Shown piece after piece: positions 20,002-52,587 of a DNA stretch of 64,000 bases (the first letter of the stretch is position 1; every line of letters starts with the position of its first letter). The notes below the pieces were generated by a model that saw only the letters and a list, made by a program, of their open reading frames with translations, was not told where the DNA came from and made no database searches. This DNA is from Campylobacterota bacterium (GTDB lineage Bacteria; Babelota; Babeliae; Babelales; RVW-14). The translations under genes were made by a program, and so were the position numbers. The stretch spans positions 310,243 to 374,242 of the forward strand of contig JACKCO010000004.1 in assembly GCA_020633995.1 (NCBI GenBank), given 5' to 3'.

Positions 20002-20095
20002 GTCATCCTCTGACCTGTCCTCTTGCTTGACAAGGGGATTGACCAGAGGATCTAGATCTCCGACCCCCACTTTCGTGAGGGCTGCCGGGGATGAC
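20002..20095. repeat. Two adjacent hairpin modules (one nested; one GAAA-loop type, minus orientation)
   Basis: gtcatcctctg[acctgtcctcttgcttgacaaggggattgac]cagaggatc (20002-20052), then gatctccgacccccactttcgtgagggctgccggggatgac (20055-20095). Confidence 0.85.
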
Positions 20096-23314: not shown

Positions 23315-23338
23315 TTGTTAGTCGAGGATCATCTGACT

Positions 23339-23623
23339 ATGGCTTTTTATGTTTATATTATGGCAAACAAACCACGTGGGACTTTGTACATAGGAGTTAC
23401 CAATAATTTATCACGTAGAGTTTGGCAGCATAAGCAAAAGACCCTAGATGGTTTTTCAAAGAAATATAATCTGACACGTCTTGTCTGGGCTGAAAAAATT
23501 GAATATGGCCAGCAGGCTATCGCTCGTGAAAAGCAATTAAAACGTTGGCATCGTGAGTGGAAAGTTAATTTGATTGAGTCTTTAAACCCAGAGTGGGATG
23601 ATTTGTACTCCACGTTAGTGTAG
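23339..23623 (+). CDS. GIY-YIG (URI-domain, COG2827-type) nuclease, copy 1
   Basis: MAFYVYIMANKPRGTLYIGVTNNLSRRVWQHKQ..REKQLKRWHREWKVNLIE shows the GIY-YIG core with conserved R and E. ATG at 23339, gagga 10 nt upstream. Confidence 0.85.
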   Translation: MAFYVYIMANKPRGTLYIGVTNNLSRRVWQHKQKTLDGFSKKYNLTRLVWAEKIEYGQQAIAREKQLKRWHREWKVNLIESLNPEWDDLYSTLV

Positions 23624-23747
23624 ATCCTGAAACGATACTCTGATGAAAATAGAGATCCTGAAACGAGTTCAGGATGACGTCTTTTCGTTCAGGATGACGT
23701 CATGTAAGGATAGGTGAATGTTGCGTTCTTCTGTGTGGAGGAGATTT

Positions 23748-23912
23748 TTACTCTGAATCTGGTGGTAGATGCACCCTGAGTCGAGAAGACGTCACCCTGG
23801 GGTGAGAAGGTGTCACTCTCAGTTGAGGGGGGCGCTCTGAGTCGAGAGAACAACGTACCTTGAACTCGGTAGACGTCACCCTGAACTTGTTTCAGGGTCT
23901 TCTTGATAAAGA
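23748..23912 (+). repeat. Middle copy (R2) of the ~20-nt degenerate repeat array plus hairpin
   Basis: Same unit series as 23140-23314. It ends in gtcaccctgaacttgtttcagggtc and the shared leader sequence. Confidence 0.8.
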
Positions 23913-23936
23913 TTGTTGGTCGAGGATCATCTGACT

Positions 23937-24230
23937 ATGGCTTTTTATGTTTATATTATGGCAAACAAACCACGTGGGACTTTGTATATTGGTGTTACAA
24001 GTAACCTTGCTCAAAGAGTTTTGCAGCACAAACAAAAAAAGGTGTCTGGCTTTACGCAAAAATATAATCTTTCTCAGCTTGTGTGGGTGAAAGTTAGTCT
24101 TTCTATGCAAGAGGCAATTACGCTTGAGAAACGCTTGAAGAAGTGGAACCGAAGCTGGAAAATGGAGCTCGTAGAATCAACGAATCCCAACTGGCAAGAT
24201 CTATCTCATGTGTTATTTAACATTGATTAA
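23937..24230 (+). CDS. GIY-YIG (URI-domain) nuclease, copy 2
   Basis: MAFYVYIMANKPRGTLYIGVTSNLAQRVLQHKQ..LEKRLKKWNRSWKMELVE. The first 50 nt are identical to copy 1, then it diverges. Confidence 0.85.
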   Translation: MAFYVYIMANKPRGTLYIGVTSNLAQRVLQHKQKKVSGFTQKYNLSQLVWVKVSLSMQEAITLEKRLKKWNRSWKMELVESTNPNWQDLSHVLFNID

Positions 24231-24236
24231 AATCTA

Positions 24237-24271
24237 GATCCCCGATGGGACTCGGGGATGACCCCTTTTTT
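24237..24271 (+). terminator. Hairpin module acting as a likely terminator of GIY-YIG copy 2
   Basis: gatccccga-tgggac-tcggggat, then gacccc plus T6 (24266-24271), 7 nt after the stop. Confidence 0.5.
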
Positions 24272-24334
24272 ATTGGATTTAACTTTACAGCAACACTCTG
24301 GACAGTTGTAAAACAAGTTCAGGATGACGTCAGG

Positions 24335-24712
24335 GCACATGGTTCAGCATGGCGTCGAGAAGAGTGCGTGATTCAGGATGACGTCGGTCGGGGAGTGTGT
24401 GGTTCAGGATGACGTCGGTCGGGGAGTGTGTGGTTCAGGATGACGTCGAGGGGCGCAACTTTTCCGTCGGGAACGACAAATTTTTTGTATGCCAATTCTC
24501 CAAGCAAGGTTGTTCTTAAAAAAAGAAATGTTACTTTGAAATAGAGAGACGTTGCCTTAAACTCGGTAGAAGCATTCTGCATTTGGTAGATGTACCCTGA
24601 GTCGAGAAGACGTCACCCTGGGGGTGAGAAGGTGTCACTCTCAGTTGAGGGGGGCATTCTGAGTCGAGAGAACGTACTCTGAACGAAAAGACGTCACCCT
24701 GAATTTATTTCA
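24335..24712 (+). repeat. Long direct repeat R3 (gene-less copy of R1)
   Basis: Collinear with 22949..23314 apart from one extra 31-nt unit. It ends in gtcaccctgaatttatttca. Confidence 0.85.
24372..24456 (+). repeat. 31-nt tandem repeat, about 2.7 units
   Basis: ttcaggatgacgtcggtcggggagtgtgtgg starts at 24372, 24403 and 24434 (partial). The R1 equivalent at 22986-23038 has one unit fewer. Confidence 0.85.
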
Positions 24713-24774
24713 CTACCGTTCAAAGTGTTATTTTATTCTTATAATACTATATTTTTTAGTAAACATTTTTTTCT

Positions 24775-27819: not shown

Positions 27820-29379
27820 CTACAAACCCCATACCTGAATGGTCCATTTTCCTTGTTGCTCAGTTCGGGTAAAAATTTTGTCATCCCAGCTTTTACCCTC
27901 ACTACGGTCAAAAACAACCAAGTGCCCCTCAGTTGCATTGTTGGCGTCCATGTACTCGGCTGTTTGCAGCAGGCCGTCCGGAACTGTTTTGGCACTGTGT
28001 GCAACTTTAAGCTCGATGACGATGCGCTGCTCTTTCCAGCCGACTAAAATATCAAGCCGTCCCCGGCCAAGGGCATATTCGCGGTGGATGGTGCCACCAC
28101 CGTTAACCACACGCTGCAAAAATGCCATAAGCAGTAGGTGAGGTCCAGCCTCTTTGTAGGCAAAGCGCTCGAGCCACATTTCTGAATTTTCGCGATAAAA
28201 TTGGGTGAAGCTTTCAAGCAGCTTTGTCATATTCAGCTGCCCATCTTCATCAACATACCAGGCAGTTTGCTGTGTGAGTGAAAGCTGTGTGGTGTAGGTG
28301 AGCTCGCGTGGAATCACTTCTTGATAGATTGGGTTTGCAATATCAAGCCCTTTGTTACGTTTACAAATTAGGCCAAGGTCAAGCACATACTGCACGTCAT
28401 CGGTCGGAAAATCTTGCGGTCGAGTGGTTCCGTTGACAATGCTGTCAACGATTGCCCGCACACGAGGCTCGCGCAATTTATCAACCAGCTGGTCAATATG
28501 CGTATCTCGACGCTGGATGAGTATTTCTTTGCTGCGCTCGATAATGTCTTTGGTAATTGTTTGTGCTCGGTCCGTCACATCACGAAAACATGCTTGGTAG
28601 GCCAGAGCATTGACAAGCCATGGCTGGCCTTGCGTCAGGTGTTGGACATACTCAATTGCATCATCAGTAAATTTTTGTCCTGTCTCGTGCGTGTGCTGGC
28701 AGAGCAAGTAGCGTGTTTGGGCTAGGCTAAAATTTTCAAGGGTAAGGCTTTCGGCCTTGATGTTAAACGCGCTACCACCCAACACCGTTGCCTGTGCACT
28801 GTCAGACCAGATGCGGTAGTCGCGCACATCACGCACACCCACCAAACACACAGCCTGAGGGAAAAAGCCTGGTCTGCTTGCATAGCCAGCACGCAGCTGA
28901 CGCAACACGGAAATGAGTGTATCGCCAACCAGAGAGTCAATTTCGTCAATGAATAGCACGATTGGCTTGTCTGAGTTGGCTGACCAAAATTGTAAAAAAT
29001 CTGCAAGATTATTACCCGAGATCATATCAGAGGTTTTTGTTGTCTCTTCCAGGTGGAGATAGCCAACATCTTGTTGGCCAAAATAGAGACTGATAGCATT
29101 TTTAATAGCACGCATGATGGTAAACATCGCTTGTTCAACGTCACTGCGCGCGGCCTGCGCGGCTTCAATGTTGACGTAAAGCGCTTTGTATTTGCCCTGC
29201 TGGTTTAGCTCTTTAACAAACTGGACCATACCCGTGGTTTTCCCGCTTTGACGCGGTGCATGCAAGATAAAGTATTTTTTTTGCTCAATGAGCTGACGTA
29301 CTTGGTTATCATTAAATCTATCTGGTACAAAATAGTGATCTGCTGGATTAATTGGGCCTGCGGTATTGAAAAATTTCAT
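27820..29379 (-). CDS. AAA ATPase fused to a C-terminal PD-(D/E)XK nuclease-like domain
   Basis: ATG at 29379 after aaggag. MKFFNTAGPINPADHYFVP, Walker A APRQSGKTT, Walker B LFIDEID. C-terminal GRLDILV..VIELKV (D..ExK). Confidence 0.8.
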   Translation of the reverse strand: MKFFNTAGPINPADHYFVPDRFNDNQVRQLIEQKKYFILHAPRQSGKTTGMVQFVKELNQQGKYKALYVNIEAAQAARSDVEQAMFTIMRAIKNAISLYFGQQDVGYLHLEETTKTSDMISGNNLADFLQFWSANSDKPIVLFIDEIDSLVGDTLISVLRQLRAGYASRPGFFPQAVCLVGVRDVRDYRIWSDSAQATVLGGSAFNIKAESLTLENFSLAQTRYLLCQHTHETGQKFTDDAIEYVQHLTQGQPWLVNALAYQACFRDVTDRAQTITKDIIERSKEILIQRRDTHIDQLVDKLREPRVRAIVDSIVNGTTRPQDFPTDDVQYVLDLGLICKRNKGLDIANPIYQEVIPRELTYTTQLSLTQQTAWYVDEDGQLNMTKLLESFTQFYRENSEMWLERFAYKEAGPHLLLMAFLQRVVNGGGTIHREYALGRGRLDILVGWKEQRIVIELKVAHSAKTVPDGLLQTAEYMDANNATEGHLVVFDRSEGKSWDDKIFTRTEQQGKWTIQVWGL

Positions 29380-29469
29380 GATTTTTAGATCTCCTTGATC
29401 GTGTAGAAACATAAAGCATGAGTATAGCATATGGCCTGTACCCAGCCAAACGTTTGTCGGGGGCGGCTA

Positions 29470-30178
29470 TGCCGTTATCTGTACCCACATTAGTATTACC
29501 ATGGATACCGGCTCGTGGGCCGGTATGACGAGTTGGTAGGGCCAGCATGACAAGTACTTGGAGATGATTTCCCTTAATGAAAATAAGATTACCGATCGAA
29601 GTATTGTACGTCGATACAAAGGACTATGCAATATAATCAGATCCTGAAACAAATTCAGGATGACGTCATGAGTATAAAATAACGTCATCCTGAACCATGT
29701 GCTCTGACTTGATCAGAGTATTGTTTCAGGATCCATAACTAGTCATTCCACCCCAAGGGGAAAACAATGGACCCTGGATCGGAGTCACTACTGTCCAAAG
29801 TGTTTTGAAATAATCTTTTTTGAAGGTGCATGCTATTACCCCTTAGGTCGCCCCCGGCTTGGTCGGGGGTCCAGATAATGGTTAATCAAGTTCTGGATTC
29901 CCGCCGAGCCTGCCCTCTGACTTGATCAGGGGGTCACTGCAACCCACGAGCCATTACTGTGCGTGATTTTCATATAAATTGTAGCACTACTACTTGTGGG
30001 TCAAGTTTGCGATACCTCAACTCGTCGCTCCGGGCTTGATCCGGAGTCCATAGGTCAAATCTACGCTTTACTTCCGTGCTCGTGTGGATACCGGCTCGTG
30101 GGCCGGTATGACGAAGTGCGGTATATATTTATTGATCTTGGCCCCGAAGCCTGGAGGGAGTCATCCCCGACTTCGATA
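29470..30178. repeat. Dense hairpin repeat cluster including a truncated MITE-like copy
   Basis: 29503-29532 ggataccggctcgtgggccggtatgacgag. 29640-29667 and 29682-29733 are inverted tgaa-type modules, the second one nested. 29790-29915 is homologous to 60366-60485. Confidence 0.85.
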
Positions 30179-30430
30179 GCTTGCCCGCAGTCTTGGCCAA
30201 TGGGATGGTACGTCTGGCAGCGATACACCACGAACTCGATCTGGTAGCATGCCGGAGCGTGCAAAGCGGCAAGCACAGCTGCATACAGCCTACCAGACGG
30301 GCAATGGGTGTTTGCAGCTGAGTGAAGATGAGGCTGAGGCGTTGGTTAAACAGATGGTGATGGTGTGTTTGGAGGCAGAGGCCGATTTTACTACTAAATG
30401 CTAAGTTGACTTTACATATAGTTCTACTAT
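30179..30430 (+). pseudogene. Duplicated, internally deleted 3' fragment of gene 26671..27570
   Basis: Matches 27141-27244 joined directly to 27449-27596. The 204-nt in-frame deletion is bounded by cagctgc microhomology. An in-frame TAG lies just upstream, and the only ATG in frame is at 30250. Confidence 0.8.
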
Positions 30431-30464
30431 GTGCTAAGTTGACCTTACATATAGTAGTGAAAGG

Positions 30465-31634
30465 GTGAGTATGATTATTAATAGAAATTTTTGGCAGGCG
30501 TTAATAGAAAGATCCTGGAAAGAGCGGAGTGTTATTTGGTTAATGGGTGTTAGACGGGTTGGTAAGACAAGCTTATGCCAGAGTCTTGATAACATTGAGT
30601 ACTTTGATTGTGAGAGCCCTAGGGTTAGGCAGATGCTGGTAGATCCTGAAAGTTTTCTTGAGGGGCAAGAAAATACACGGGTTGTACTCGATGAAATTCA
30701 TCGTCTTGATAATCCCTCAGAGGTTTTAAAGCTCGCTGCGGATCACTATCCCACCGTTAAAATTATTGCGACAGGCTCATCAACGCTGGGTGCTAGTGCA
30801 AAATTTAAAGACACGCTAACGGGTCGAAAGATTGAAATTTGGCTTTCGCCTATGCTTTTTCAAGATCTTGCTTTGTTTGGTAACACTGATTTGAATCACC
30901 GTTTTCTATTTGGTGGGTTACCCTCTTTTTTTACAGCAAAACAAGTCCCTGAAAAGTATTTTCAGGAATGGATTGATGCTTACTGGGCAAAGGATATACA
31001 AGATATATTCAGTATTGGTAAACGCTTTGCATTTCAAAAGTTTGCCGAGCTATTGCTGGCAAATAGCGGGGGGCTTTTTGAGGCAACTCGATATACGGCA
31101 CCTTGTGAGGTGAGCAGGGCGACCATCTCTAATTATCTGAATGTTTTGGAAGAAACGTTTGTTGTGCATGTGTTACGGCCTTTTTCAACGCATAAGCCGA
31201 CCGAGATTGTTATGGCTCCAAAGGTGTATGGGTTTGATACCGGCTTTGTATGTTATGCGCAAGGTAAAACAGCGTTAAGAGCAGAAGATGTAGGCTTTAT
31301 GTGGGAGCATTGTGTCTTGAATGAAATGCTTGGTCGACTTCAAATGCGGACGGTTCATTATTGGCGTAATAAAAGTGGGCATGAGATTGACTTTGTTATT
31401 CAACATCGAAAAAATAAGTCGATTACTGCCATAGAGTGCAAATTTCTTATTAATCAAGATGCGATTGCTCTTAAAGCACTGATTAAAAATTTTACAAGTT
31501 TCAGGCGTCACTATCCAATAGGAGAAAATATTGTTGTGGCTAGCAATATTGAAAAGATGTTTAAAAGAAAAATTGATGATATTACCATTACGTTTCTAGC
31601 GCCTGACGATCTTATCGACTTACTGGATCAATGA
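30465..31634 (+). CDS. AAA ATPase (COG1373-like, AAA_14 plus DUF4143 architecture) with a nuclease-like C-terminus
   Basis: 389 aa. Walker A GVRRVGKTS, Walker B VVLDEIH. C-terminal GHEIDFVI..ITAIECKF (D..ExK-like). Confidence 0.75.
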   Translation: MSMIINRNFWQALIERSWKERSVIWLMGVRRVGKTSLCQSLDNIEYFDCESPRVRQMLVDPESFLEGQENTRVVLDEIHRLDNPSEVLKLAADHYPTVKIIATGSSTLGASAKFKDTLTGRKIEIWLSPMLFQDLALFGNTDLNHRFLFGGLPSFFTAKQVPEKYFQEWIDAYWAKDIQDIFSIGKRFAFQKFAELLLANSGGLFEATRYTAPCEVSRATISNYLNVLEETFVVHVLRPFSTHKPTEIVMAPKVYGFDTGFVCYAQGKTALRAEDVGFMWEHCVLNEMLGRLQMRTVHYWRNKSGHEIDFVIQHRKNKSITAIECKFLINQDAIALKALIKNFTSFRRHYPIGENIVVASNIEKMFKRKIDDITITFLAPDDLIDLLDQ

Positions 31635-31639: not shown

Positions 31640-31960
31640 ATTATTACTGAGCATATTTATTGATCTTGGCCCCGAAGCCTGGAGGGAGTCATCCCCGAGC
31701 CTGCTCTCTTGCCTGCCTTGGGGGCATCCCCGACTTCGAGCCTGCCTTCTTGCTTGACAAGAGGGTCATCCCCAATTCCACACGCTTGTCATCCTCGGAC
31801 TTGATCTACACGCTCGTCACCCTGGACTCCGATCCAGGGTCCATTTTTGAAGATCACATCTAAAACCTAGGTGAGCATTCTCATGGATACCGGCTCGTGG
31901 GCCGGTATGACGAAGTGCGGTGTATATTCATGGATGCCGGGTCCTCCCCCCCCGACAGGC
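31640..31960. repeat. Hairpin repeat cluster
   Basis: 31650-31700 is homologous to 30128-30175. 31812-31845 gtcaccctggactccgatccagggtcc. 31885-31915 ggataccggctcgtgggccggtatgacgaag. Confidence 0.85.
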
Positions 31961-32480: not shown

Positions 32481-35400
32481 CTATGCGATGACTTGTAATT
32501 GTGTGCCAATTTTTTCAAGGTACATTCCTCTCTTCTTTTCATTAGTACCTGCTGTTGGAAACTTTTCTTTTATTTTTTTGCCCAAATCATCTATTTTTTT
32601 TCCAATGTCTGCTGCATTTCCATTATTAAGGATAACATAATGATCTTTGATTGCTTCATCGAAATCAGTTTTTTTGTTATAGATATCATCTTTATTTTTA
32701 CCTATAGCAGTATTGAATTTCTCACATATTTCTTTCCCAAGATCATCTAGAGTAGCATTATTGGCAGCGTCAACATCAAAGGCGGTAATGTCAAGGGACA
32801 GAGCAATATTATTAATTTGGGTTAAAGTACCTACGGGGTCTGCTTTGAACACAAGCACGGTGTTAGTAGCGCCGCCGCCGCCGCCTCCGCCGCCGCCACC
32901 AGCGCCACCAGCGCCTCCGCCTCCGCCAGCGCCGCCTCCGCCGCCGCCGCCTCCGCCGCCAGCGCCTTTAGCAGGTAGAGTTCCAACTGCTGCAATGGCT
33001 GCATCGATGCCGCCTAAGTCAAGGCCAAGGATGGTATTGATAGCTGTTGCCTTAGCTTTGGTTATAGCAGTGTTAAGTGCCTCAATGTCTGTTTTGTCAA
33101 AATCTGCATCGGCTGCTCCAGGATTTGCTTTATTTGCAGTAAACCAGTCACTTAGGCTAGTAGCACCATCACTGGCTGTTTTGTTGGCAGCATTGATCAC
33201 ATCGTTAAACGCATTGAGTGCTGCACTAAGTGAACCATCACTAAATGGTGGGGCCTGTAGTGCATTGGTTATTGGTTGAAGTGCTGGATTAAGTCCTGAA
33301 AGATCTTTGTTGCCTAACTCTGTAATGAGTGCTGTAACTTTGCCACCAAGTGCTGCAGGATCATTGTTCAACAGATTAAGTGCTTGTCGTTGTTTTATAG
33401 CGTCTGCTCCTAAGATTGCTTGCGCATCTGCGCTTACAGCCAAGTCTTTCAGTGCAGTGTGTACTGCAGTTCTTGTCTTAGCTAGTTTAGCTATTTTTGC
33501 TTTGGCGTTTGCTACCAATTTGTCTGCAACGGTTTTGGCAAAGGTTTGCTTTGTTGGATCAACTGCTGCATTCAGTCCGTTAAAGCCTGTTATGCTTGCG
33601 TAATGGGCAAGTGCTATATTTGCATCAGCTGCCTTGCCATAGACGTCAGTAATAATTTCTGCTTTTTGTGTATCGATGTAGTTTTCATACGCTGTTTTGC
33701 TTGTTGGGACAGCGGCAATGCTGGTATCATATTCTGTTTTTACCTCAGCATTGGTACCAGCTTTGACTGCTGCTAGTTTGGTATCAAAGTTTTTGATGAT
33801 ATCTGTGTGACCATTGCCATCGATGAGTGACTTTTCGATGTGTGCGTTCATAATGTTTTTGAGAATGTCTTCGGTAGCTGCTGCGTCTGCACTGTCTTTG
33901 ATTGCTTGTATGAACGCTGCGTTTGGATAAATATCATGGCCAGCGATATCAGTGTCATCTGCAGGATTTTTGTAAAATCCGTATAGTGCTTCAATTGCGG
34001 CATGTTGTGTTGCTACAGAAGCGTTTTTGCAATTAGCTTCGGTTGGATTTTTGCTTACTTGTGCCAAGTCATGAAGTGCTTGAACAAGTGGATCGGTTAA
34101 GCGTGCGCTTAAGTCGCTGTAAGCAGGCAGTGCGTTAGTGACAATGTTAGCGTCGTCTTGGTGATGCCATGACATGGCGCTGAGTGCTTCTAAGATATTT
34201 TTTTGTGGATCAGAAGCTGTTCCAAGCCAGGCTCTAAATGTTGCAGTCATTGTCGCCCACCAACCTGAACCGGATGTGCCAAGTCTTTTATTGCTGATTT
34301 CAAACAAAATCGCATCACGTAAAGAGCTTGTTGGCGCGGTGTCACTAACGATGTCTTTTAAGCGCTTGACGACTTGTTTTGAAGTGTTGGCGTCTGCAAG
34401 ATTGAAAATGTTGTCATACAAGTTGTAGTTGTTGAAAAGCTGGCTTGTCCACTTAGCACGGTTTGGTGCACCTGCAATGGTGAGTGTATGGTAGTCTTCA
34501 GCGGCTTTTTGAACGGTATTGATATTCAGCTTCAAGATATTGTTTGTGAAGTAGGTAAAAACTTCTTGTTTAGATTTACCCATGACATTTGGGTTTGTAC
34601 CACTTAAGTCAACTTTAGCTCCTACCACCCCTGGTGTTGGGTAATTGTACAGCAGGCTGTCAAGGGTTTTTGTCATGGCAGGGCTTTTTGCTGCTTCAAA
34701 TGTTGTTCCTGGAGCGTCGTAGGCATCTGCCAACGCGAAGTGCTTGTGGTGTTGGTGCTCCATGAGTTTATCAACAATGGTTTCAAGAGAGTTTTTGACT
34801 GTTGCTGCTTCAAACTTATTTGCCGCGAATGCACCTTCAAAATTACCTAGTTTGCCAGTATTAGCAGTGCGGGCGTCCTTGACTTTTTTAAAAGCGAGGA
34901 GAAGGTCGAGGTGTTTTTTAGTGGTTGGTTCGTCTGTTGCCGCTGCAACTGGCCCAGGAGCAAGTGGTATTGCTTGGTTAACAAAAGTAGTGAGTAGACT
35001 TGCAGGAGCTGCGTTATTCGCTATGTTAGTAACGCAACTGATTGCGTCATCATTTGCCAGAACTTCTAGCATGTTGTTTGCTTCACCTGCTAGACCATGG
35101 GTTCCAGACGCATGAATATTTTTTATATCAGCATGATGTGCTTTAACAATTTTGACGAGTGCTGATGCGTCAGCATCGGCTTTGAAGGTTGCAGCAACGT
35201 GGAAAGGGCTTTTGTTAAATTCATGCAGGACGTCGTTGTTTATAGCTTCAGCAGCAACCTCTCTCAACGCAGCTAGTGTTGCATCTTTGACTGCGGCAGC
35301 ATCTGTCTCATCTGGTGCAGCGGCTATAATTTTTCCAAAAATTTCATTAGCAAAACCCTTGGTGTCTTTCATTAATTCTGTAATATCTGTATGAGCGGCT

Positions 35401-36224
35401 TTTAGTGCATCATCAGCGCCAGCCTTGAAAAATTTCTTAGATTCTTTCTGGTCAGCTGTTGTTAGATCAGCTTTGATTGCAGTCCACAATGCATCTTTTG
35501 CTGCAGCGCCTGTTGGTGCTGGTGGAGATGCGATTGGTGCGAGCTTGGTAGCAATTTGGGCTACCAGTGGTGCAGCTCCGGTAACACTGCTTACGTTTGG
35601 ATTGATAGATGAAATGAGTTTAGGGTTAGTGTGCGCGAGGAATTTAGTTGCGTCGGCTGATTTTTGTGTATCGCGTCGTACGCCATCACTTTTGAATGAG
35701 TCAGGTGCGAGTAATTTTTTTGAAAGCCTTTCCAGCGCTTGTTGAAACTGAGTGTATGCTGTTAACACTTTTTGAGCATCTGCTTGTGAGGGTGAGGTGT
35801 TAATGAAGTCATCCATTTCGCTGGCGATTGTATCGATACGAGCATTAATTTTACCTGCCCAGCTGTTTGAGTATGGATTTGCAGCTGTTGGCGTGAAATT
35901 AATACTCGTCAGTGGCAGGCCAGCACCACTAGCGCTCTTGTACTTTTTAATGATATTATTTTCGGCCGTTGCATCGTCGATGCCGGCAAGCATCCCATCG
36001 ATAGCGGTGACTGTATCGAGTAGTTCTGTTTCGATGTCATCCGCACCTTTTTTATCGATATCTGTTGCTGTTTTCTCAAGGCGTGCATCAGCGTCCTTGC
36101 ATAATTTGCTAATTATTCCAAAGTTCCACGCCGCGGCTAATGGACTGAATGAGCATAGACTGATGAGCAACGTCAGAAATGTTGCGATTGTCGCGTAGCG
36201 TGCTCTTACTCCTGTTTGCTTCAT
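32481..36224 (-). CDS. Giant Ala/Lys/Asp-rich secreted surface protein (1247 aa) with a poly-Gly tract
   Basis: Uninterrupted 3.7-kb ORF. Signal peptide ..ATFLTLLISLCSFSPLAAA. No domain that I recognise. Confidence 0.8.
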   Translation of the reverse strand: MKQTGVRARYATIATFLTLLISLCSFSPLAAAWNFGIISKLCKDADARLEKTATDIDKKGADDIETELLDTVTAIDGMLAGIDDATAENNIIKKYKSASGAGLPLTSINFTPTAANPYSNSWAGKINARIDTIASEMDDFINTSPSQADAQKVLTAYTQFQQALERLSKKLLAPDSFKSDGVRRDTQKSADATKFLAHTNPKLISSINPNVSSVTGAAPLVAQIATKLAPIASPPAPTGAAAKDALWTAIKADLTTADQKESKKFFKAGADDALKAAHTDITELMKDTKGFANEIFGKIIAAAPDETDAAAVKDATLAALREVAAEAINNDVLHEFNKSPFHVAATFKADADASALVKIVKAHHADIKNIHASGTHGLAGEANNMLEVLANDDAISCVTNIANNAAPASLLTTFVNQAIPLAPGPVAAATDEPTTKKHLDLLLAFKKVKDARTANTGKLGNFEGAFAANKFEAATVKNSLETIVDKLMEHQHHKHFALADAYDAPGTTFEAAKSPAMTKTLDSLLYNYPTPGVVGAKVDLSGTNPNVMGKSKQEVFTYFTNNILKLNINTVQKAAEDYHTLTIAGAPNRAKWTSQLFNNYNLYDNIFNLADANTSKQVVKRLKDIVSDTAPTSSLRDAILFEISNKRLGTSGSGWWATMTATFRAWLGTASDPQKNILEALSAMSWHHQDDANIVTNALPAYSDLSARLTDPLVQALHDLAQVSKNPTEANCKNASVATQHAAIEALYGFYKNPADDTDIAGHDIYPNAAFIQAIKDSADAAATEDILKNIMNAHIEKSLIDGNGHTDIIKNFDTKLAAVKAGTNAEVKTEYDTSIAAVPTSKTAYENYIDTQKAEIITDVYGKAADANIALAHYASITGFNGLNAAVDPTKQTFAKTVADKLVANAKAKIAKLAKTRTAVHTALKDLAVSADAQAILGADAIKQRQALNLLNNDPAALGGKVTALITELGNKDLSGLNPALQPITNALQAPPFSDGSLSAALNAFNDVINAANKTASDGATSLSDWFTANKANPGAADADFDKTDIEALNTAITKAKATAINTILGLDLGGIDAAIAAVGTLPAKGAGGGGGGGGGGAGGGGGAGGAGGGGGGGGGGATNTVLVFKADPVGTLTQINNIALSLDITAFDVDAANNATLDDLGKEICEKFNTAIGKNKDDIYNKKTDFDEAIKDHYVILNNGNAADIGKKIDDLGKKIKEKFPTAGTNEKKRGMYLEKIGTQLQVIA
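32871..32966 (-). repeat. Imperfect (GGN)n trinucleotide tract encoding about 32 Gly/Ala residues
   Basis: gccgccgccgccgcctccgccgccgccaccagcgcc... on the plus strand. The protein reads GAGGGGGGGGGGAGGGGGAGGAGGGGGGGGGGA. Confidence 0.9.
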
Positions 36225-36405: not shown

Positions 36406-38061
36406 TTAAAATGCAAAGCCCATTTTGCCCCAAACGGTGTAGCGCTCAAGGTCAGCATTTGATGAGGCAAATTCATATGACGCACCAATGGCAACACTTG
36501 AATGGAGGCCGCACATGCTGAACACATAACCCAGCGAGCCACCAAGGGTGTGGGTGAACAGAGCCGGTGTTCTGGCTGCTTCAACATCCAGGACATCACG
36601 GTTGATCATCAGTTCTACAGCGTCTTCTTCTAATGGGTTGATTGTTAGAAAACCTGGAATAGCTTTAGGCAGGGCATACTTGTCATCTTCCCAGTGCTTG
36701 AGCCAAACAGACTCTTTGTCTTTCCAGAACATATTGTAACCAGCATCAACCACAAAACCTCCTGAACAAAATGAAAGTGATGCAAGCGCGTCAAACAAGC
36801 TGCCTGGTTTTACACGCAGGTCGGTGGTTAGCACATTAGCAGCTGGAAAGAGTGGAGTGCCTGCTGGTGCATTAAGCTTGCCGATAGCAAAATAATGGCT
36901 GAATGGCATGCATTTGAGTGACAGGGTACGAGTTTCAGTTTTTTCAGCTAAGTAGCGGTAGTTAGCAACTAAGTGACCATCTACGCGGCCATTTTTGTTG
37001 TGCCATAGGCGGCCACTAACCTCAACGTTGGCATTAAAGCTGATGTGGCGACCGTTACCATAAATTGGCTCAAACAGATATTCGCCACGTACTTTGTTAC
37101 CTGTTGGCGCGGTGATACCAGCGCTGATAAAGACGTGTGCATTTTCTTTATGCACAACTTTGTAGCCCAGCATGAGGTCTATGTCGGCAACACCCAGCGC
37201 GCTGCGGCGGCAATCAATTTTTGCATGAGTGAGCGGGCAGAGCATTTCTCTGTTTTCAGGATCTCCAGAGGCATCAAGAGCTGGGTCGACATTGCGTACA
37301 CGGCCAGCAAAAAAGTCATGAGCACTCCACTCGTTGAGTGGTAGCTGTGTGAATTTTGCTTTTTGTTCTGGTAGGTCGCAACTGTCATCACATGGGCAGT
37401 CAGTGTCAACTGGGCAGGCTGGTGTTGGGCACGCTACCGGACATGGGTCGCAGCTGTCGGTTTTGCATGCGCCTTTTACATTCTTGCCGGTGCGAGCACG
37501 CATACTGGTGGCAACGTGCACGAGCGGCATGCTCATTTTAAAATAGAGCCCGGTAAATGGATGCATAATGTCTTGCATCAAATCAAGACGAACACCGTAG
37601 CTTTCGTGTTGTGGTTTCCAGGTGAGTGTTGTGCGAAGTTCTTGGCTCGTTGGTGCAAAGGGGTTGGTTGGTATAATGCGACGATCGTCAATTTCAGCAC
37701 CTTCTGCTGGGGTAATAGTAGCTGCTGCACCATCGGGATCTACGATAGTTCTCGTGTTGTCAAAGCGAATGCTGTTTGTTTTTTTGCAGCGATCGATGTT
37801 GCATTTTTCAATGCCAAAATATCCTCCCGTTTCACGGGTATTTTGTGATTGCTTGTAAAATGGTGTGATTTGAAATTTGGTGTGATGCGAATCTTTTTTA
37901 TGCGTGTGTTTGTGCCACGTGAAGTATTCAGTCATGAGGTCATTGATGTCGGGGCGCGTTGCCATGTATGTTTTGCCGGTATGGTCATCGCTGCCTGCAA
38001 AAAGTGTGCCCGCACACATAACTGCAACCAAAAGCGCATGTACAAAAGATCTATGCGTCAT
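36406..38061 (-). CDS. Outer-membrane beta-barrel protein (MOMP-like), paralog 1, with a Cys/Pro/Asp-rich insert
   Basis: 551 aa. Signal peptide. C-terminal ..WGKMGFAF (terminal Phe). Alternating beta-strand pattern. Paralogous to 40708..42414. Confidence 0.75.
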   Translation of the reverse strand: MTHRSFVHALLVAVMCAGTLFAGSDDHTGKTYMATRPDINDLMTEYFTWHKHTHKKDSHHTKFQITPFYKQSQNTRETGGYFGIEKCNIDRCKKTNSIRFDNTRTIVDPDGAAATITPAEGAEIDDRRIIPTNPFAPTSQELRTTLTWKPQHESYGVRLDLMQDIMHPFTGLYFKMSMPLVHVATSMRARTGKNVKGACKTDSCDPCPVACPTPACPVDTDCPCDDSCDLPEQKAKFTQLPLNEWSAHDFFAGRVRNVDPALDASGDPENREMLCPLTHAKIDCRRSALGVADIDLMLGYKVVHKENAHVFISAGITAPTGNKVRGEYLFEPIYGNGRHISFNANVEVSGRLWHNKNGRVDGHLVANYRYLAEKTETRTLSLKCMPFSHYFAIGKLNAPAGTPLFPAANVLTTDLRVKPGSLFDALASLSFCSGGFVVDAGYNMFWKDKESVWLKHWEDDKYALPKAIPGFLTINPLEEDAVELMINRDVLDVEAARTPALFTHTLGGSLGYVFSMCGLHSSVAIGASYEFASSNADLERYTVWGKMGFAF

Positions 38062-38329
38062 TGTCTTTCTCCTTTTCCCATCTACAAGGTCTTAAACCTT
38101 TACCTTTCTCTTCTACACATGATCAGCAGGGCATGTTTGTCGATGGGTGCATCATGTTAAAACAAACCACGCCGCACGCTGTTTCTTGTTTTGAGTTAAG
38201 CGTAGACCACAACAGGGAAAAGAATCAAGAATTTTGTCACATGTTTTTAATTTTTTTTAGAAGCGTTATGGTTGCGGTATTTTGCGGGGTTTGGTTTTGT
38301 TTTTTTGGATGTGTTTTTATGAGTTATGA

Positions 38330-39008
38330 GATTTTCGACCCCCACTTTCGTGAGGGCTGTCGGGGATGATCCCCTGATCAAGTCAGAGGATATGCAAATC
38401 TACCTCGTCACCCTGGACTCCGATCCAGGGTCCATTTCTAAAGAATAAACGCATCGTACATAACATATGAGTGTCACAATGGATACCGGCTCGTATCCCC
38501 TTGTCAAGCAAGAGGACAGGGCCCGGTATGACGAGTGCGAGAGGCTATAATTTTTTTGAGTCATCTCGGCCTTGTTGTTAACTCAAGAAACAACAAAAAA
38601 GGAGTCATCCCCGAGTCCCATCGGGGATCTAGATTTTAATCAATGTTAAATAACACATGAGATAGATCTTGCCAGTTGGGATTCGTTGATTCTATGAGCT
38701 CCATTTTCCAGCTTCGGTTCCACTTCTTCAAGCGTTTCTCAGATACTGATAGTGTAACAAAAAATAATGGTGTAACAATTAAACAAGATCCCCGATGGGA
38801 CTCGGGGATGACCCCTTTTTTATTGGATTTAACTTTACAACAATACTTTAATTAGGGTGACGACATCTTGAATCAGGGTGATGACATCTGTTATTGCTGC
38901 GTGGCGAAAATATCTCTCGGAGAATTAAAGAATTGCAACCGACAAGATTGCACACAATAAAAAAGTTGTCATTCCCGACAGCCCTCACGAAAGTGGGGGT
39001 CGAAAATC
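38330..39008. mobile_element. ~680-bp segment bounded by 40-bp inverted repeats, containing a GIY-YIG gene remnant and hairpin modules
   Basis: 38330-38369 is the reverse complement of 38969-39008 with 1 mismatch in 40 (hand-checked). Confidence 0.45.
38603..38741 (-). pseudogene. Remnant of a GIY-YIG nuclease gene (3' ~105 nt) with its downstream hairpin
   Basis: Reverse complement of 24125-24262 (tgagaaacgcttgaagaagtggaaccgaagctggaaaatggagctc..cattgattaaaatctagatccccgatgggactcggggatgac) with few changes. Confidence 0.8.
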
Positions 39009-39080
39009 TAAAAAATTGAAACAGGTACAAAGAAATGAGGTCCCCAATAGATCCCCTGAATCCAGAAATTTGTAACTTCC

Positions 39081-40184
39081 TTAGTCACCTTCAGGCATTG
39101 ACTCTTCGGCTGGCTCTTGTTCGGTTGCTGGTTCTTCTTCCACCTCCGGCTCTGCTTGTTCTGCTTCTTCTACCTCTGGTTCTGCTTGCTCCTGTTGCTG
39201 GCCAGCAGGCGTTTCTTCTTCTGCTTCAGCTGCTGGTTGAGCCGGTTGGCTAGTATCAAGGCCAAGCGATTGGCCAGCAAGTGGTTGCGTGCTTTCTATT
39301 GGTGTTTCTTCATACACTGCTTCCGGTTCTGGTTCGTAGGCAACGCCAGTGACCTGGCCACGTCGGTTCATGTAGCGATCATAATTTCTGGTGTTGAGTT
39401 GCTCTCGAGCTGCTTTGCGGCGTTCGCGACGGTCTTGTGAGCTTGCTCGTGCACGAGCAGGGCGTTGTGTAGGCGTTGCTTGTTGCAGGTAGCGTTGTAG
39501 ACGAGCTTGGTTTGGAGCGGTTTGCATTGAGCGTGGTGGCACACCTGCGTAGGTACGCTTACGCTCTTGTGAGCGTGTTGCGCGCATGCCAATGTGTGTG
39601 ACTGAATGAGGGCGACTCGGATCTTTTCGTACGTTTTGGGCGCGTGGGTTGATGCGGCGTCCTCCAACACGGTAGTCTGCCCGCCTGCCAGCTCCACCTC
39701 TGCGTCTGCCGCCACGCTTACCCGTTCTGCTTGAGCGTTGCGAGCGTGTGCTGCGCAGCATGCGGCGTTGTGTTGAGCGTGCTTTGCTCCCACGAACTTG
39801 TCGGCCGCGCTGTCCACCACGACGACGCTCAAGCGCTGCCTGCGTTTGCTGTCCTGGCCTGCGGCCGCGTGAGGCGCGTTGCGTGCGTGCACGGCGTGGC
39901 GCACCCTGTGAGCGCAATGAGCGAAGATGAACGGCACGGTCAGGATCAGGCTCTGGTCCTGCTTGAGCATCTTGCGCCGCCTGGTCATCTTGTTCATATT
40001 CATCTACTACGTATTCGTCTTCATACTCGTATTCATCATCGGCATCATACCCTTGCTCGTCAATCACGTCACTTTCAGGCATTTGTTGGTCAGATTCTTG
40101 TTCGGCTGCAAAAAGCGGCCGTGTTGTGTGAGCAATACCTGCACAAAGCAGACAGAGCACGAGTAGATATTTTGCCTTGTTCAT
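39081..40184 (-). CDS. Secreted charge-block protein: acidic N-terminus, ~200-aa Arg-rich core, acidic C-terminus
   Basis: 367 aa. Signal peptide MNKAKYLLVLCLLCAGIAHT. It is the longest of several overlapping ORFs in this GC-rich stretch. Confidence 0.6.
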   Translation of the reverse strand: MNKAKYLLVLCLLCAGIAHTTRPLFAAEQESDQQMPESDVIDEQGYDADDEYEYEDEYVVDEYEQDDQAAQDAQAGPEPDPDRAVHLRSLRSQGAPRRARTQRASRGRRPGQQTQAALERRRGGQRGRQVRGSKARSTQRRMLRSTRSQRSSRTGKRGGRRRGGAGRRADYRVGGRRINPRAQNVRKDPSRPHSVTHIGMRATRSQERKRTYAGVPPRSMQTAPNQARLQRYLQQATPTQRPARARASSQDRRERRKAAREQLNTRNYDRYMNRRGQVTGVAYEPEPEAVYEETPIESTQPLAGQSLGLDTSQPAQPAAEAEEETPAGQQQEQAEPEVEEAEQAEPEVEEEPATEQEPAEESMPEGD

Positions 40185-40214: not shown

Positions 40215-40640
40215 GGACCTAATCCTGCTTAGCATACCATGCGCATGAGGCGAATCTGAAGAGTTTGATAAAAAAGGCAGGTTCTGGATCCCGCCTATGC
40301 GGGAACGGTTCCCTGGGCAAGCCAGAGGACAGGCTTGGTGATGAGCCACTACTGTACAAAGCGCTGTTTGTAAAATCATATGCAATTGAGTAGGAGTCAT
40401 TCCCGACGCCGATCGGGAATCTGGGTAAAAGAGAGCTACTGGTTTGTAGCATGTTTGTGTTTGTAAAATTTTATATGAAGGGCAGGTTCTGGATTCCCGC
40501 CTACGCGGGAACGACGAGTGTTGGGTTGTTAGGCAGATACAAGATCAAGATGGCTGCTCTTGGAAAGTTAGGCTACAAAAAACTACGTCTTCCCCGACTT
40601 GATCGGGGATCCAGAACTTGAAGTATTCCTTTCAAGAAAA
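40215..40640. repeat. Hairpin repeat cluster
   Basis: 40281-40310 and 40487-40518 gttctggattcccgcctacgcgggaacgac. 40396-40421 gtcattcccgacgccgatcgggaatc. 40587-40612 cgtcttccccgacttgatcggggatcc. Confidence 0.85.
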
Positions 40641-40707: not shown

Positions 40708-42414
40708 TTAAAATGATACGCCAACTTTACCCCAGATACCCCAGTTGTCGTAGTTGCTGTTGCTTGAAGCCCATTCATACTGACCACCAAGACCCATCAT
40801 CAATGGATATTCCCATTCATGGAAGAAGTAACCAAGGCCACCGTAGATTTTGTTGCTAAACTGTGATGGTGTTTCTGCTACGCGTGTGTTGACGTTGCTT
40901 GAAGTAAGTTCAAGTGGTGTGCCGTCAGATTTTCTTTCTGCTTGGTTGTCTTTGCTGAAGCCGTTTGTTTGATCGATTTCAGCATTACGAGCGACCAAGT
41001 GCCAACCTTTAGGGAATCCGTCGCAACCGCATTTGAGTTTGACTGACTCTTGTTCACGGTAGTAGAGTGTGTAACCAAAGTCAAATACAAAACCGCAGTT
41101 GGTGTATGACAAGCCAAAGAGTGCGTTCACTTGGCTGCCAGGGGTTACATCAACGCCAAGGCAGGTTGACACGTTAGCAAATGGTGTTAAGCATTTGTCA
41201 CCATCTTTTGCAACAAGGTACCATGGGCTGCATGGGCGGCCAGGGCACTCAATGCCAAGCGCACGGTTTTCACAGCTTTCAAACAGGTAGCGATATTTAA
41301 CCGCGATATCAAGTTTGAGGTTGTGCTTGTGATCATCGCCCCATAGTTTGAACCATGATTTGAAATCAAAACCAACACCAAAGTGGTTACCGTTACCTTG
41401 TACGCTTTCAAACAACCATCTGCCATCTGGGTCGTTACCCGTTGGGATGGTGATTGCAAACGCAAGGGCTGCACGGTAGTCATCTTTGTAGAGGAAGTGA
41501 TAGCCAAGGCCTAAGTCGATGTCTGAAACGCCGGTTTCATCATCTGGACCTTTGCAACCGCAACGGTCGATGCGCAGTTTGCAGAGTTCTTTTTGGCAGT
41601 TTGTGTCAGCAGTACCAACTTTGTTGTCTACTTTTGCACCGCTGTAGTAGTTTTCAAGTTGTTTTTTGAGTGTTTCGTCGTCACTCTGTACAAACATGTT
41701 CATTTTATGTTCAACATGTTCAATAGTCATGTTGCCATAAAAGTACAAGCCTTTAAGGAGTTTATCCAAACTTTGGTAGTAGTCAAAGCGTGCACCATAA
41801 CGTTCTGCGTCTGGGTTTGTGCAAATTTTTGCTGTTTTATCATTAGTAGTTGAGAGTTGCTTGTTGTGATCGTGAACGATGTAGCGCCAGTCAACCGTGT
41901 CAACAGCTGATTTTGCAGCTGGAGTTGACGCCGTTGTTCCGTCGCTGGTACCATCACGCTTAACTATAGAGCCAACATCTTCTGTTTTAAATTCACAGCA
42001 GGTGCCGCATTTTGTTTTGCAGCCGGTGTTGCATTTGCATGGGTCGCAGTTGCAAGTGCCACAGCAGCTTGGATCTCTGGTGATTTCACTTCTAGTGCAG
42101 CAGCTTGAGCAGGTGCCGCAGGTGCCTGTTGAGCAGCTTGTGTCACATTTGGTGTCACATGCTTTTCCACAGCAGCTGAAGTATGTGCCGAGTTCACTGC
42201 TTGATGATGAGTCCATCCAAAATGGAACTACTTGAAAATTCGCGCCAAATTTATCTTCGGCGTGTCTGTCAATCATGCGTGCGAACGTGGTGTATTCCAT
42301 GGCCAAGTTGACATTACTTGGACGTGGCATTAAGAAGGTTTTATTGTTATGAGCGAAAACCGATGCTGAGCTAACGGTCAGCAATGCGGCTAAGAGGGCT
42401 TTTATTTTATTCAT
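40708..42414 (-). CDS. Outer-membrane beta-barrel protein (MOMP-like), paralog 2, with a ~65-aa Cys-rich insert
   Basis: ATG at 42414 gives MNKIKALLAALLTVSSASVFA. C-terminal ..WGKVGVSF. Both termini align with 36406..38061. Confidence 0.75.
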   Translation of the reverse strand: MNKIKALLAALLTVSSASVFAHNNKTFLMPRPSNVNLAMEYTTFARMIDRHAEDKFGANFQVVPFWMDSSSSSELGTYFSCCGKACDTKCDTSCSTGTCGTCSSCCTRSEITRDPSCCGTCNCDPCKCNTGCKTKCGTCCEFKTEDVGSIVKRDGTSDGTTASTPAAKSAVDTVDWRYIVHDHNKQLSTTNDKTAKICTNPDAERYGARFDYYQSLDKLLKGLYFYGNMTIEHVEHKMNMFVQSDDETLKKQLENYYSGAKVDNKVGTADTNCQKELCKLRIDRCGCKGPDDETGVSDIDLGLGYHFLYKDDYRAALAFAITIPTGNDPDGRWLFESVQGNGNHFGVGFDFKSWFKLWGDDHKHNLKLDIAVKYRYLFESCENRALGIECPGRPCSPWYLVAKDGDKCLTPFANVSTCLGVDVTPGSQVNALFGLSYTNCGFVFDFGYTLYYREQESVKLKCGCDGFPKGWHLVARNAEIDQTNGFSKDNQAERKSDGTPLELTSSNVNTRVAETPSQFSNKIYGGLGYFFHEWEYPLMMGLGGQYEWASSNSNYDNWGIWGKVGVSF

Positions 42415-42888
42415 TCGTATACCCCACAAATTATAACGTTTAACTTGTGACCTTAAAGTACCATGCACTAAAATTTTTTATACAATTTTAATTGCTTGCA
42501 AAAATAATCATGAAAATATTTGTATCGTTTTCTGCACGACCTCCTTTCCACTCAAAATGTATTCGGCACACATTGACCCTACCTAATTTACAAGGAGCTC
42601 GTTGACTTGATCAATGCGTCACCATCGCGTACATTTTCCACACTGCTTGACTTAATGAGACCAGTCAAGCGTAACGAATGTTGTTCAAGATATCAAGTCT
42701 TTTTTGTCCTCGCGTTTTTCACTTCACACTACGTTTTGAAAATTATACAAATCTCTGTAAAGTTAAATTTATATAAAAAGGTTGGACGGATGCAATACTT
42801 TTTACACAAAATTTTTTTTTGCATAAAAAAACGACGGAAAAGTAAGAAAACTTTTTTTGTTTAAAAGATTGACTGAAAGCGGGACGGT

Positions 42889-50905: not shown

Positions 50906-51024
50906 TTTGAATTGTAAGCAACCTAACACAAAAAAATTGCAAAGCATACAAAGCGCATAAGCAGGTTGCCAGAGATAGCTTAGCATTATACTATTGCGTG
51001 ATACTATTGCGTGTGGAGAACACG

Positions 51025-52587
51025 GTGAAGCTAAAAAAATTGCCACTAGGTATACAAGTTTTTGAACAAATTATCGAGCATGACTATGTTTATGTCGATA
51101 AAACCGAATATGTTTATGCCATGATTTCTTCCGGGTCGTGCTACTTTCTTTCACGTCCACGTCGTTTTGGTAAGTCGCTGACGCTTTCAACGTTGGATGC
51201 TATTTTTTCAGGCAGAAAGGAATTGTTCAAAAACCTTTGGATTGATAAGAGTGATTGGGGATGGAAAAAATATCCTGTGCTGCGCCTGGATATGTCCAGT
51301 GTTTCCTGTCAAAATGTTCAGGCCTTTAGGCAAAGCTTAGGTGTTTGCCTTGATCTACTTGCACGTAGGCACAATATTGTTATCGACCAAAGTTGGCATG
51401 CAGGTGACAAACTTAAGGCAATTGTTGAGCAGTGTGCCAGAAAAGGTCCTGTGGTGGTGTTAATTGATGAATACGATGCGCCGCTACTACAACATTTGCA
51501 CAATATTGAAGATGCCGAGTGTATCAGGACTGAATTGCGTTGCCTGTATGCTCCGCTTAAGGATTTGCAGAAATACTTACGGTTTGTTTTTCTGACCGGG
51601 GTAAGTAGGTTTTCAAAAACATCTATTTTTTCTGGATTGAACAATTTAACTGACTTAAGCATGCATGGAACATATGCTGCGTTATGTGGGTATACGCAAG
51701 CTGAGATAGAGCATTATTTTGCAGACCACTTGGATCTCGTTGCTCAGCGGTTACGCTTGCACAAATCTGTGCTCATCGACCAGGTGAGGTCTTGGTACAA
51801 TGGATATCGGTTTAGCGCCTGCTCAGAAATTTCTTTGTACAATCCCATATCTGTTTTGTCGTTGCTTGATCGAAAAGAATTCAAAAATTTTTGGATGGAG
51901 ACTGGTAGCCCGTCATTTTTAATAAAACTGTTTGTGCAGGGGCAGCTTGCCCCCAAGGACATTGACAACAGTTGGGTAAGTGAAAGTACGCTCAGCAGTT
52001 TTGAGCTGAGCAATATTAACTTGCAAACAGTTATGGTTCAGGCTGGATATTTAACAATCAAGGATTATGTGTTTAAAAATAATCGCTCCCGCTATCTGCT
52101 TGGTTATCCAAATCATGAGGTTAAGCAGTCATTTATAGAGTGTATTATTCAAAACTTACTAAAAACTGAGCCGACGCTTGTTGAGAGTTATGCCGAGGCG
52201 TTGCGTGATGCTCTTTGCCAGTCAAGGCTAGAAAAATTTATAGATTTGTTTAAAGAGTTGATGACACAAATTCCATATGATTTGTATGCATCAACAGAAA
52301 AACATTATCAGACTATTTTTTATGTGACCTGTTTGGTTGCAGGTTTTGAGCCTATTGCTGAAGATCACACAGCGCGTGGACGCATTGATGTAACATTTGA
52401 ACACGAACATGTTATTTATATCATTGAACTTAAAATTGGTTGTAGCGCTGACAACGCGCTTGCACAAATACATGAAAAGCGTTATTACGAAAAATTCTTA
52501 AATAAAGGTAAACGGATTGTTTTGCTTGGTATTTCGTTTGATGTGCAGGCAAAAACAATCGGTGAATGGAAACAAGAAAATTTATAA
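51025..52587 (+). CDS. AAA-ATPase-like protein with a C-terminal PD-(D/E)XK (PDDEXK_9-like) domain
   Basis: GTG at 51025 after ggaga (track start GTG 50998). [35 protein letters not shown]-terminus. C-terminal [15 protein letters not shown]. Confidence 0.8.

Follow-up and report, generated by a model that had tools for sequence, protein, structure and literature searches.

A Putative Non-Autonomous ssn Cassette Within a Cluster of Ssn-Related Hairpins in a Probable Dependentiae Genome

Introduction

Between a gene for a putative outer-membrane protein (OMP) and a gene for an arginine-rich secreted protein, in a 64,000-nucleotide stretch of contig JACKCO010000004.1 (the whole stretch is termed the window here), the intergenic DNA at 38062-39080 consists of clustered hairpin repeats that resemble the targets of the nuclease Ssn. 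Within the cluster lies the 3' end of an ssn gene, which in its intact form encodes a small GIY-YIG nuclease, and to either side of this remnant stand two 40-mers, 38330-38369 and 38969-39008, that together form an inverted repeat. An earlier note on this DNA had taken the 40-mers for the terminal inverted repeats (TIRs) of a decayed, formerly autonomous element of ~680 bp. The analysis presented here favors a different arrangement. The segment is probably a cluster of Ssn-related motifs (SRMs) that holds one non-autonomous, minus-strand ssn cassette, and the 40-mers belong, as two more copies, to the hairpin repeats around it instead of forming the cassette ends. The coordinates of the features are collected in Table 1.

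The Ssn proteins were described by Chenal et al. (2025, Nat Commun 16:2388, PMC11893778) as single-domain GIY-YIG nucleases of ~94 amino acids (aa; CDD cd10448). Their targets are the NTS hairpin, CGTCATTCCCGCGMAVGCGGGAATCYRG, which contains the Neisseria dRS3 repeat, and more broadly the SRMs. Binding is to single-stranded DNA (ssDNA) only and to one strand only, and the cut is made a few nucleotides upstream of the hairpin; cleavage depends mostly on the three bases before the palindrome (GTC), and binding mostly on the C after it. Strand-specific cleavage of ssDNA was shown for the Neisseria and Wolbachia homologues. The gene typically has the layout NTS-ssnA-NTS, an architecture that the authors call "identical to" an insertion sequence, and the mobility of NTS-ssn-NTS units is put forward there as a hypothesis only. 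NTS repeats are seldom intragenic and cluster beside membrane-protein genes, SRM-rich genomes are enriched in symbionts, and in Neisseria the nuclease shortens the ssDNA taken up in transformation and reduces recombination at loci that the repeats flank (PMC11893778).

The Deleted ssn Cassette

The GIY-YIG remnant that the earlier note had described between the 40-mers is present as claimed. On the minus strand, 38636-38741 translates to EKRLKKWNRSWKMELIESTNPNWQDLSHVLFNID followed by a stop, and 34 of its 35 residues are identical to the C-terminus of an intact gene, 23913-24230 (ssn-2). The DNA of 38595-38741 agrees with that of 24271-24125 in 145 of 147 positions. The remnant keeps the residue equivalent to E64 and lacks both GIY-YIG tyrosines; it therefore encodes no active nuclease. 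The second, plus-oriented copy of the hairpin and its flank is also real, with 38786-38839 matching 24236-24289 at 54 of 54 positions.

The remnant and this second hairpin copy appear to be opposite ends of a single cassette on the minus strand, 38572-38843. They carry an inner inverted repeat, 38572-38640 / 38778-38843, of ~65-69 nt and ~87% identity, and the unit as a whole can be aligned, from one end to the other, to a complete cassette from another metagenome. This cassette, with an 85%-identical orthologue, is found on a contig of the European Nucleotide Archive (ENA; L049), in the order outer flank, SRM(+), leader, gene, SRM(-), outer flank, with ends that form an inverted repeat of ~75-84 nt. 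From 38846 to 38742, the minus strand of the window aligns at ~85% identity to the upstream flank, SRM, and leader of L049. At the junction 38742/38741 the alignment leaps to codon ~62, with a short AGAA microhomology, and runs on through the stop and the downstream SRM. Compared with L049, the window copy lacks ~216 bp between the end of the leader and codon ~62. The order on the minus strand is TIR with SRM, leader, the ~216-bp deletion, the last 106 nt of ssn, and SRM with TIR, which gives a deletion derivative of 272 bp that retains both ends and the leader. Of the earlier proposal, the decayed GIY-YIG cassette bounded by inverted repeats is thus borne out, and the part that fails is the position of its ends, which appear to be the inner ~65-nt pair and not the 40-mers.

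This is the only deletion derivative of the cassette that was found. Its SRM at 38604-38629 is, on the minus strand, also terminator-like for the remnant gene. The L049-type cassette sits between genes unrelated to those here, and no homologue of the genes beside the L049 or the L001 cassette occurs in the window. The Rfam model RF02625 (WsnRNA46) spans the whole deleted cassette at 47 bits, below its gathering score of 65.3, and the match covers both hairpins only, with a 127-nt insertion between them.

Intact ssn Genes

The window contains two intact ssn genes, ssn-1 and ssn-2, each with a (+) hairpin upstream and a (-) hairpin downstream. Pfam GIY-YIG (PF01541) is the sole substantive domain in both (5e-15 and 3e-16), and the predicted proteins are 94 and 97 aa long from ATG. 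Ssn-2 has Y6, Y17, and E64 at the same numbering as the positions mutated in N. meningitidis SsnA and is likely a trans-acting nuclease.

A search of plasmid records found a single homologous locus in N. gonorrhoeae NZ_CP119142.1, with a tblastn E of 2e-25 where the Ssn paper takes E < 1e-10 as homology. The product of this locus is 54% identical over 76 ungapped aa (BLASTP, 4e-33), and consensus NTS repeats lie around the locus; we infer that it is the ssnA orthologue. The gonococcal record is a 2.17-Mb chromosome that PLSDB lists as a plasmid. The ssnA frame of this strain (L057 596-628, L057 being 1881119-1882573) has a stop after 10 codons, and the gene looks disrupted. The Protein Data Bank gave only a weak match, to the UPF0213 structure 1zg2 (E = 0.002), and NCBIfam gave no family above cutoff for the GIY-YIG proteins of the window.

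The association of gene and hairpin extends well beyond this genome. Homologues of ssn in unrelated phyla are flanked by the same hairpin type, for example cGTCATTCCCGCgaaaGCGGGAATccag. At 49 ssn homologues, hairpin density is 1.37/kb within 200 bp of the gene versus 0.085/kb elsewhere in the same loci (16-fold), and at these loci a (+) hairpin typically precedes the ATG by 50-65 nt and a (-) hairpin follows the stop by 7-40 nt, a layout that ssn-1 and ssn-2 share.

The gene ssn-2 is a chimera. Its first ~50 nt, like the 200 nt upstream of it, match ssn-1 at 90-100% identity, and its remaining ~240 nt are 77-93% identical (in 30-nt windows) to the L049-type gene (L049 479-772). The remnant at 38.7 kb is of one type with the 3' two-thirds of ssn-2, and its identity to the L049-type part of that gene is 98.6%. 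This mosaicism implies recent recombination or gene conversion between cassettes. A tandem array at 23100-24720 contains the ~190-nt hairpin-rich ssn leader three times; the third copy, ~24520-24715, has no gene behind it, and GTTCAGGATGACGTC half-hairpins are abundant in the spacers.

Hairpin Repeats of the Window

The hairpins of the family share one architecture: (c)GTC, an 8-bp stem, a loop of 4-6 nt, the complementary stem, and C(C/T)AGAT. The stems differ among subfamilies yet stay complementary, which is to say that they covary, as in the pairs ATCCCCGA/TCGGGGAT, ACCCTGGA/TCCAGGGT, ATACCGGC/GCCGGTAT, and GCTCCGGG/TCCGGAGT. Strict hairpins of the form GTC-stem-loop-stem-C number 23 in the window against 0.09 expected from dinucleotide shuffles, and the 3' C is present in 23 of 23. 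Under relaxed criteria 26 hairpins are found, all 26 of them intergenic, in a window of which only 19% is intergenic.

Searched by BLAST against the window, 38330-39010 resolves into a mosaic of short segments with copies in other intergenic regions, near 20.0, 20.7-20.9, 24.1-24.8, 29.8-29.9, 31.8, 53.9, and 60.6 kb. The ~600 bp between the 40-mers contain at least seven more hairpin modules, all of which recur at other sites of the window. Among them is hairpin X, which recurs at 29914-29932, 20002-20052, and 53676-53696.

Some hairpins are nested. An SRM with a 'cttga' loop lies inside the loop of another SRM at 20002-20052, 29684-29733, 38482-38535, and 60231-60280. There are thus at least four nested hairpins in four different host hairpins, with a constant junction in which ..CC is joined to TGT(C/G)C.., and empty hosts occur elsewhere in the window; the host of the compound hairpin at 38479-38538 is found in its empty form at 29504, 30087, and 31886. 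This pattern suggests insertion into single-stranded loops. Further compound-hairpin sites are 22918-22996 and 23623-23678.

At least five convergent SRM pairs, with the partners 50-100 nt apart, are also present (20883/20961, 31816/31886, 40396/40492, 53800/53880, and 60420/60469). Spacers are common to the units at 20870 and 24770, and the other convergent-pair spacers are unrelated. A derivation of these mini-units from the ssn cassette was considered and set aside as not demonstrable, since in the five spacers compared only the hairpins match the cassette. The unit at 20862-21005 gives a weak WsnRNA46 match of 31 bits (gathering score 65.3), and other weak Rfam matches near 40650, to leader and small RNA (sRNA) models, were discarded as terminator-like noise.

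The 40-bp Inverted Repeat

The two 40-mers are inverted copies with a single mismatch, as the earlier note had stated, and 0 of 100 shuffles produced a match of this kind. In a repeat search, the arms lengthen to 46 nt at 93% identity (38324-38369 / 38969-39014). Their general form is GTC-ATTCCCGAC-[AGCCCTCACGAAAGTGGGG]-GTCGAAAAT-C, a compound hairpin with a 19-nt loop that holds a second small hairpin, and this inner stem-loop resembles the Neisseria NTS variant ATTCCCACTTTCGTGGGAAT. The right copy reads GTC...AATC and so has both the SRM triplet and the 3' C. Because another hairpin abuts the left copy, the triplet before its stem is ATC and not the GTC that is critical for cleavage.

Of the other copies that had been listed for the 40-mer, 20055-20094 is a genuine one, the third in the window, with 3 mismatches, and the sequence at 8372 is only a distant structural relative that shares the CTCACGAAAGT core. 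Beyond the window, an exact search with the 40-mer core returned 0 matches in genome and metagenome contig collections that did not include the source genome; a looser pattern returned 6 matches in metagenomes, all of them by chance, within high-GC coding DNA and with no ssn nearby. With three copies scattered at random over the intergenic DNA of the window, the chance that two of them form an inverted pair within one intergenic segment is ~7%. As a sequence, the 40-mer repeat is far beyond chance; as an arrangement, the inverted pair is not compelling.

Several features separate the 40-mers from the ends of the element. They lie ~200 bp and ~125 bp outside the inner cassette ends, and the outer pair is centered at ~38669 and the inner pair at ~38708, so a single large palindrome over both pairs was rejected because their symmetry centers differ. 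The SRM strand is minus in the left 40-mer and plus in the right, which makes the pair divergent, whereas cassette ends are convergent. Neither intact ssn gene in the window is flanked by 40-mers, and the third copy stands alone. This orientation, the solo copy, and the lack of any intact ssn gene between 40-mers all argue against the 40-mers as element ends.

The alternative, in which the outer repeats are the TIRs of a ~680-bp GIY-YIG element, once autonomous and now decayed and invaded by other hairpin modules, draws on the near identity of the arms (one difference in 40 positions), on the GIY-YIG remnant between them, and on the 5' flank of the right arm, which is shared with the cassette TIRs. 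It must contend, in addition to the divergent orientation and the solo copy at 20055, with a remnant that has its own complete ~65-nt end pair inside the supposed element, with intact cassettes in the window and L049 that end in simple SRMs and not in the 40-mer, and with a left arm whose flank is another hairpin and not the cassette flank. Target-site duplications, which the earlier note had proposed to look for, are not visible at the outer boundaries of the 40-mers, where the flanks read ...GTTATGA and TAAAAAA... with no direct repeat. The same note had named, as grounds against its element, 40-mers that are hairpin modules occurring in random orientations at this density across the genome. 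Within the window this is largely what is found, because the terminal 40-mers are dispersed hairpin modules, one copy is solo at 20055, and the ~600-bp interior is itself a mosaic of modules. An origin of the 40-mers as TIRs is judged very improbable.

A role in transcription is another explanation for the 40-mers, which would be kept as terminators or attenuators and would owe their pairing only to the meeting of two transcription units at this site. Read on the minus strand, the right arm forms a hairpin followed by TTTTTT (AACTTTTTTATTG), 72 nt beyond the stop codon of the gene for the Arg-rich protein, its outer stem pairs via G-T wobbles on that strand, and SRMs with a CCTTTTTT flank score as terminator-like. 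The right 40-mer may therefore double as the terminator of the Arg-rich protein gene. The left arm, however, has no T-run after it and no gene reading into it, the copy at 20055 has no T-run on either strand, and the 40-mers were not called as terminators in the scan. Such a role is moreover compatible with the SRM reading, as the same hairpins can serve both, and as the sole explanation of the 40-mers it is considered unlikely.

The ~600-bp segment between the 40-mers might instead be an inverton that controls the gene of the OMP or of the Arg-rich protein, given that the segment is intergenic, has inverted repeats at its borders, and lies immediately upstream of a gene for a surface protein. 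There is no adjacent recombinase gene, however, the nearest tyrosine recombinase being the XerC/D-like 60657-61643; the region 38000-39150 contains 0 sigma-70-like promoters versus 2.2 expected; and the arms come from a dispersed repeat family and enclose a repeat mosaic. An inverton has only the slightest probability.

Three observations weigh against the placement of the segment in a population of SRM-type hairpins, with the 40-mers as ordinary members. First, the 40-mers at 38330 and 38969 differ from each other by 1 position, unlike the third copy with its 3 mismatches; this closer kinship could reflect a shared local origin. Second, the copies of the 40-mer and their pairing were counted within the 64-kb window. 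Third, the published degenerate string, HGTCWYN(0-2)YYVSBRHN(0-5)WNVSBRGN(0-2)RNCYNB, has only 1 match in the window, at 40586-40614. In place of the literal string a structural definition of the SRM was used, with shuffles as the control, and by this definition the hairpins of the window are stem variants that fit the SRM architecture and not the literal pattern. The SRM cluster with its single deleted cassette remains the probable explanation of the segment as a whole.

Table 1. Coordinates of the ssn genes, cassette parts, and hairpin repeats (positions in the window)
Feature	Position	Strand	Description	Basis
Left arm of the 40-bp repeat (module A)	38330..38369	minus (SRM strand)	compound SRM-like hairpin; minus strand reads ATC-ATCCCCGAC-[AGCCCTCACGAAAGTGGGG]-GTCGAAAAT-C	
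Hairpin X	38370..38392	-	SRM-like, ATCCTCTGA cttga TCAGGGGAT; abuts module A; degenerate 5' triplet	sequence inspection
Simple SRM	38407..38432	+	GTC-ACCCTGGA-ctccga-TCCAGGGT-C; identical to 31816-31841	inventory
Compound hairpin	38479..38538	-	SRM GTCATACCGG...CCGGTATC with second SRM (38495-38520) in loop	inventory
Downstream TIR of deleted ssn cassette	38572..38640	+	with SRM 38604-38629	repeat search, hairpin inventory
ssn (GIY-YIG) 3' remnant	38636..38741	-	35 codons and stop	translation, alignment to 23913-24230
Cassette leader remnant	38742..38786	-	upstream untranslated region	alignment to L049 ~400-452
Upstream TIR of deleted ssn cassette	38778..38843	-	SRM 38787-38812 and outer flank CAATAAAAAAGG	repeat search, L049 alignment
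Right arm of the 40-bp repeat (module A)	38955..39008	+	canonical GTC triplet; cassette-like 5' flank CAATAAAAAAG	inspection, repeat search
Third copy of module A	20055..20094	-	unpaired; adjoins compound hairpin X; between two convergent genes	sequence match
ssn-1	23315..23623	+	intact; SRM 23277-23301 (+) upstream, SRM downstream	Pfam, hairpin inventory
ssn-2	23913..24230	+	intact; SRMs 23875-23899 (+) and 24237-24262 (-)	Pfam, hairpin inventory

Proposed Mechanism and Mobility

By analogy with the published system, Ssn-1 and/or Ssn-2 most likely bind the hairpins of the window on ssDNA and cleave the strand a few nucleotides 5' of the GTC. A target field for Ssn would then be the cluster at 38.3-39.0 kb, placed between genes for surface or secreted proteins, and the deleted cassette would be a non-autonomous relic that may have arrived by transposition or by recombination.

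Whether the cassettes move is a separate matter. The deletion derivative with its intact ~65-nt ends, the recombinant ssn-2, and the nested hairpins are modest circumstantial evidence of mobility and recombination. That Ssn cassettes and single SRM hairpins are actively mobile ssDNA elements in this genome is a tentative proposal, more doubtful than not. If it is true, the nested hairpins and their companions would be the footprints of an Ssn-dependent insertion of hairpins into single-stranded loops, a GIY-YIG counterpart of the system of REP repeats and RAYT transposases that is compared below. The window bears circumstantially on the mobility question raised for the NTS-ssn-NTS units, in that a derivative, a chimeric paralogue, and nested hairpins all occur within 64 kb. 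Such a genome, where many hairpin subfamilies coexist with at least two paralogous nucleases, would also suit the study of specificity pairs of Ssn and hairpin, and of repeat spread.

Genomic Context

The source genome carries the NCBI label "Epsilonproteobacteria bacterium," and its OMP family and closest relatives point to Dependentiae (TM6)/Babeliales. Two paralogous, cysteine-rich putative OMPs of a Dependentiae/Babeliales family (36406-38061 and 40708-42468) flank the secreted protein, 39081-40184, whose core, extremely rich in Arg, lies between an acidic N-terminal region and an acidic C-terminal tail. The intergenic regions on both sides of its gene contain SRM clusters. Homologues of the flanking OMPs are found in metagenome-assembled genomes (MAGs) of Dependentiae/Babeliales at no more than 39% identity, the value of the closest one, and no close relative with an orthologous OMP locus was found among the sequences searched.

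Further genes of the window border on hairpin-rich DNA. Three AAA-ATPase genes, 27820-29430 (AAA_35), 30465-31634 (AAA_14 and DUF4143), and 50998-52587 (AAA-ATPase_like and PDDEXK_9), adjoin hairpin-rich intergenic regions, and the largest such hairpin cluster, 29431-30464, lies between two of them. The gene 32481-36224 encodes a 1247-aa protein rich in Ala and Asp, with a long poly-Gly tract (GGGGGGGGGGAGGGGGAGGAGGGGGGGGGG). Otherwise the window resembles any stretch of ordinary bacterial chromosome, with dnaE, ftsK, fab genes, aminoacyl-tRNA synthetases, and xerC/D.

Comparison with Known Systems

The 272-bp derivative at 38572-38843 resembles a miniature inverted-repeat transposable element in that it keeps both TIRs and has lost most of the coding region. 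It differs in that the mobility of the parent cassette is only putative, no target-site duplication is seen, and the derivative is single. The consensus of the Rfam WsnRNA46 model is an inverted pair of Wolbachia SRM hairpins, as in the deleted cassette; the matches here are below threshold, and nothing points to an sRNA.

Neisseria intergenic mosaic elements (NIMEs) are intergenic arrays of short segments between inverted dRS3 hairpins of the ATTCCC-N8-GGGAAT type. The convergent hairpin pairs of the window are alike in layout, whereas their spacers are unrelated to the Neisseria RS elements. Repetitive extragenic palindromes (REPs) and the bacterial interspersed mosaic elements (BIMEs) built from them are linked to REP-associated tyrosine transposases (RAYTs; TnpA-REP, related to IS200/IS605), which are HUH/Y1 enzymes, and have a conserved GTAG flank. 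The two systems share intergenic hairpin mosaics, a small nuclease gene flanked by inverted repeat copies, and recognition of ssDNA hairpins. They differ in the enzyme, which is GIY-YIG here and not HUH/Y1, and in the flank, which is GTC and not GTAG; we know of no strand-transfer activity for Ssn.

The closest likeness is to the Neisseria Ssn system itself. SsnA and the predicted nucleases here are small, single-domain GIY-YIG proteins with Y6, Y17, and E64 in common, and the product of the Neisseria ssnA locus is 54% identical. In both systems, oriented GTC...C hairpins flank the gene, are intergenic, and cluster near surface-protein genes, and the host is probably a symbiont. What seemed a puzzling TIR element would accordingly be resolved as an instance of the Ssn/SRM system, already known since 2025, in what appears to be a new lineage for it, a Dependentiae (TM6) symbiont genome. 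The host here is a Dependentiae MAG. Compared with the published system, this one genome has many stem subfamilies, most of them outside the published string, and it combines at least two intact, partly chimeric ssn paralogues with a deletion derivative and with compound repeats in which one hairpin sits in the loop of another.

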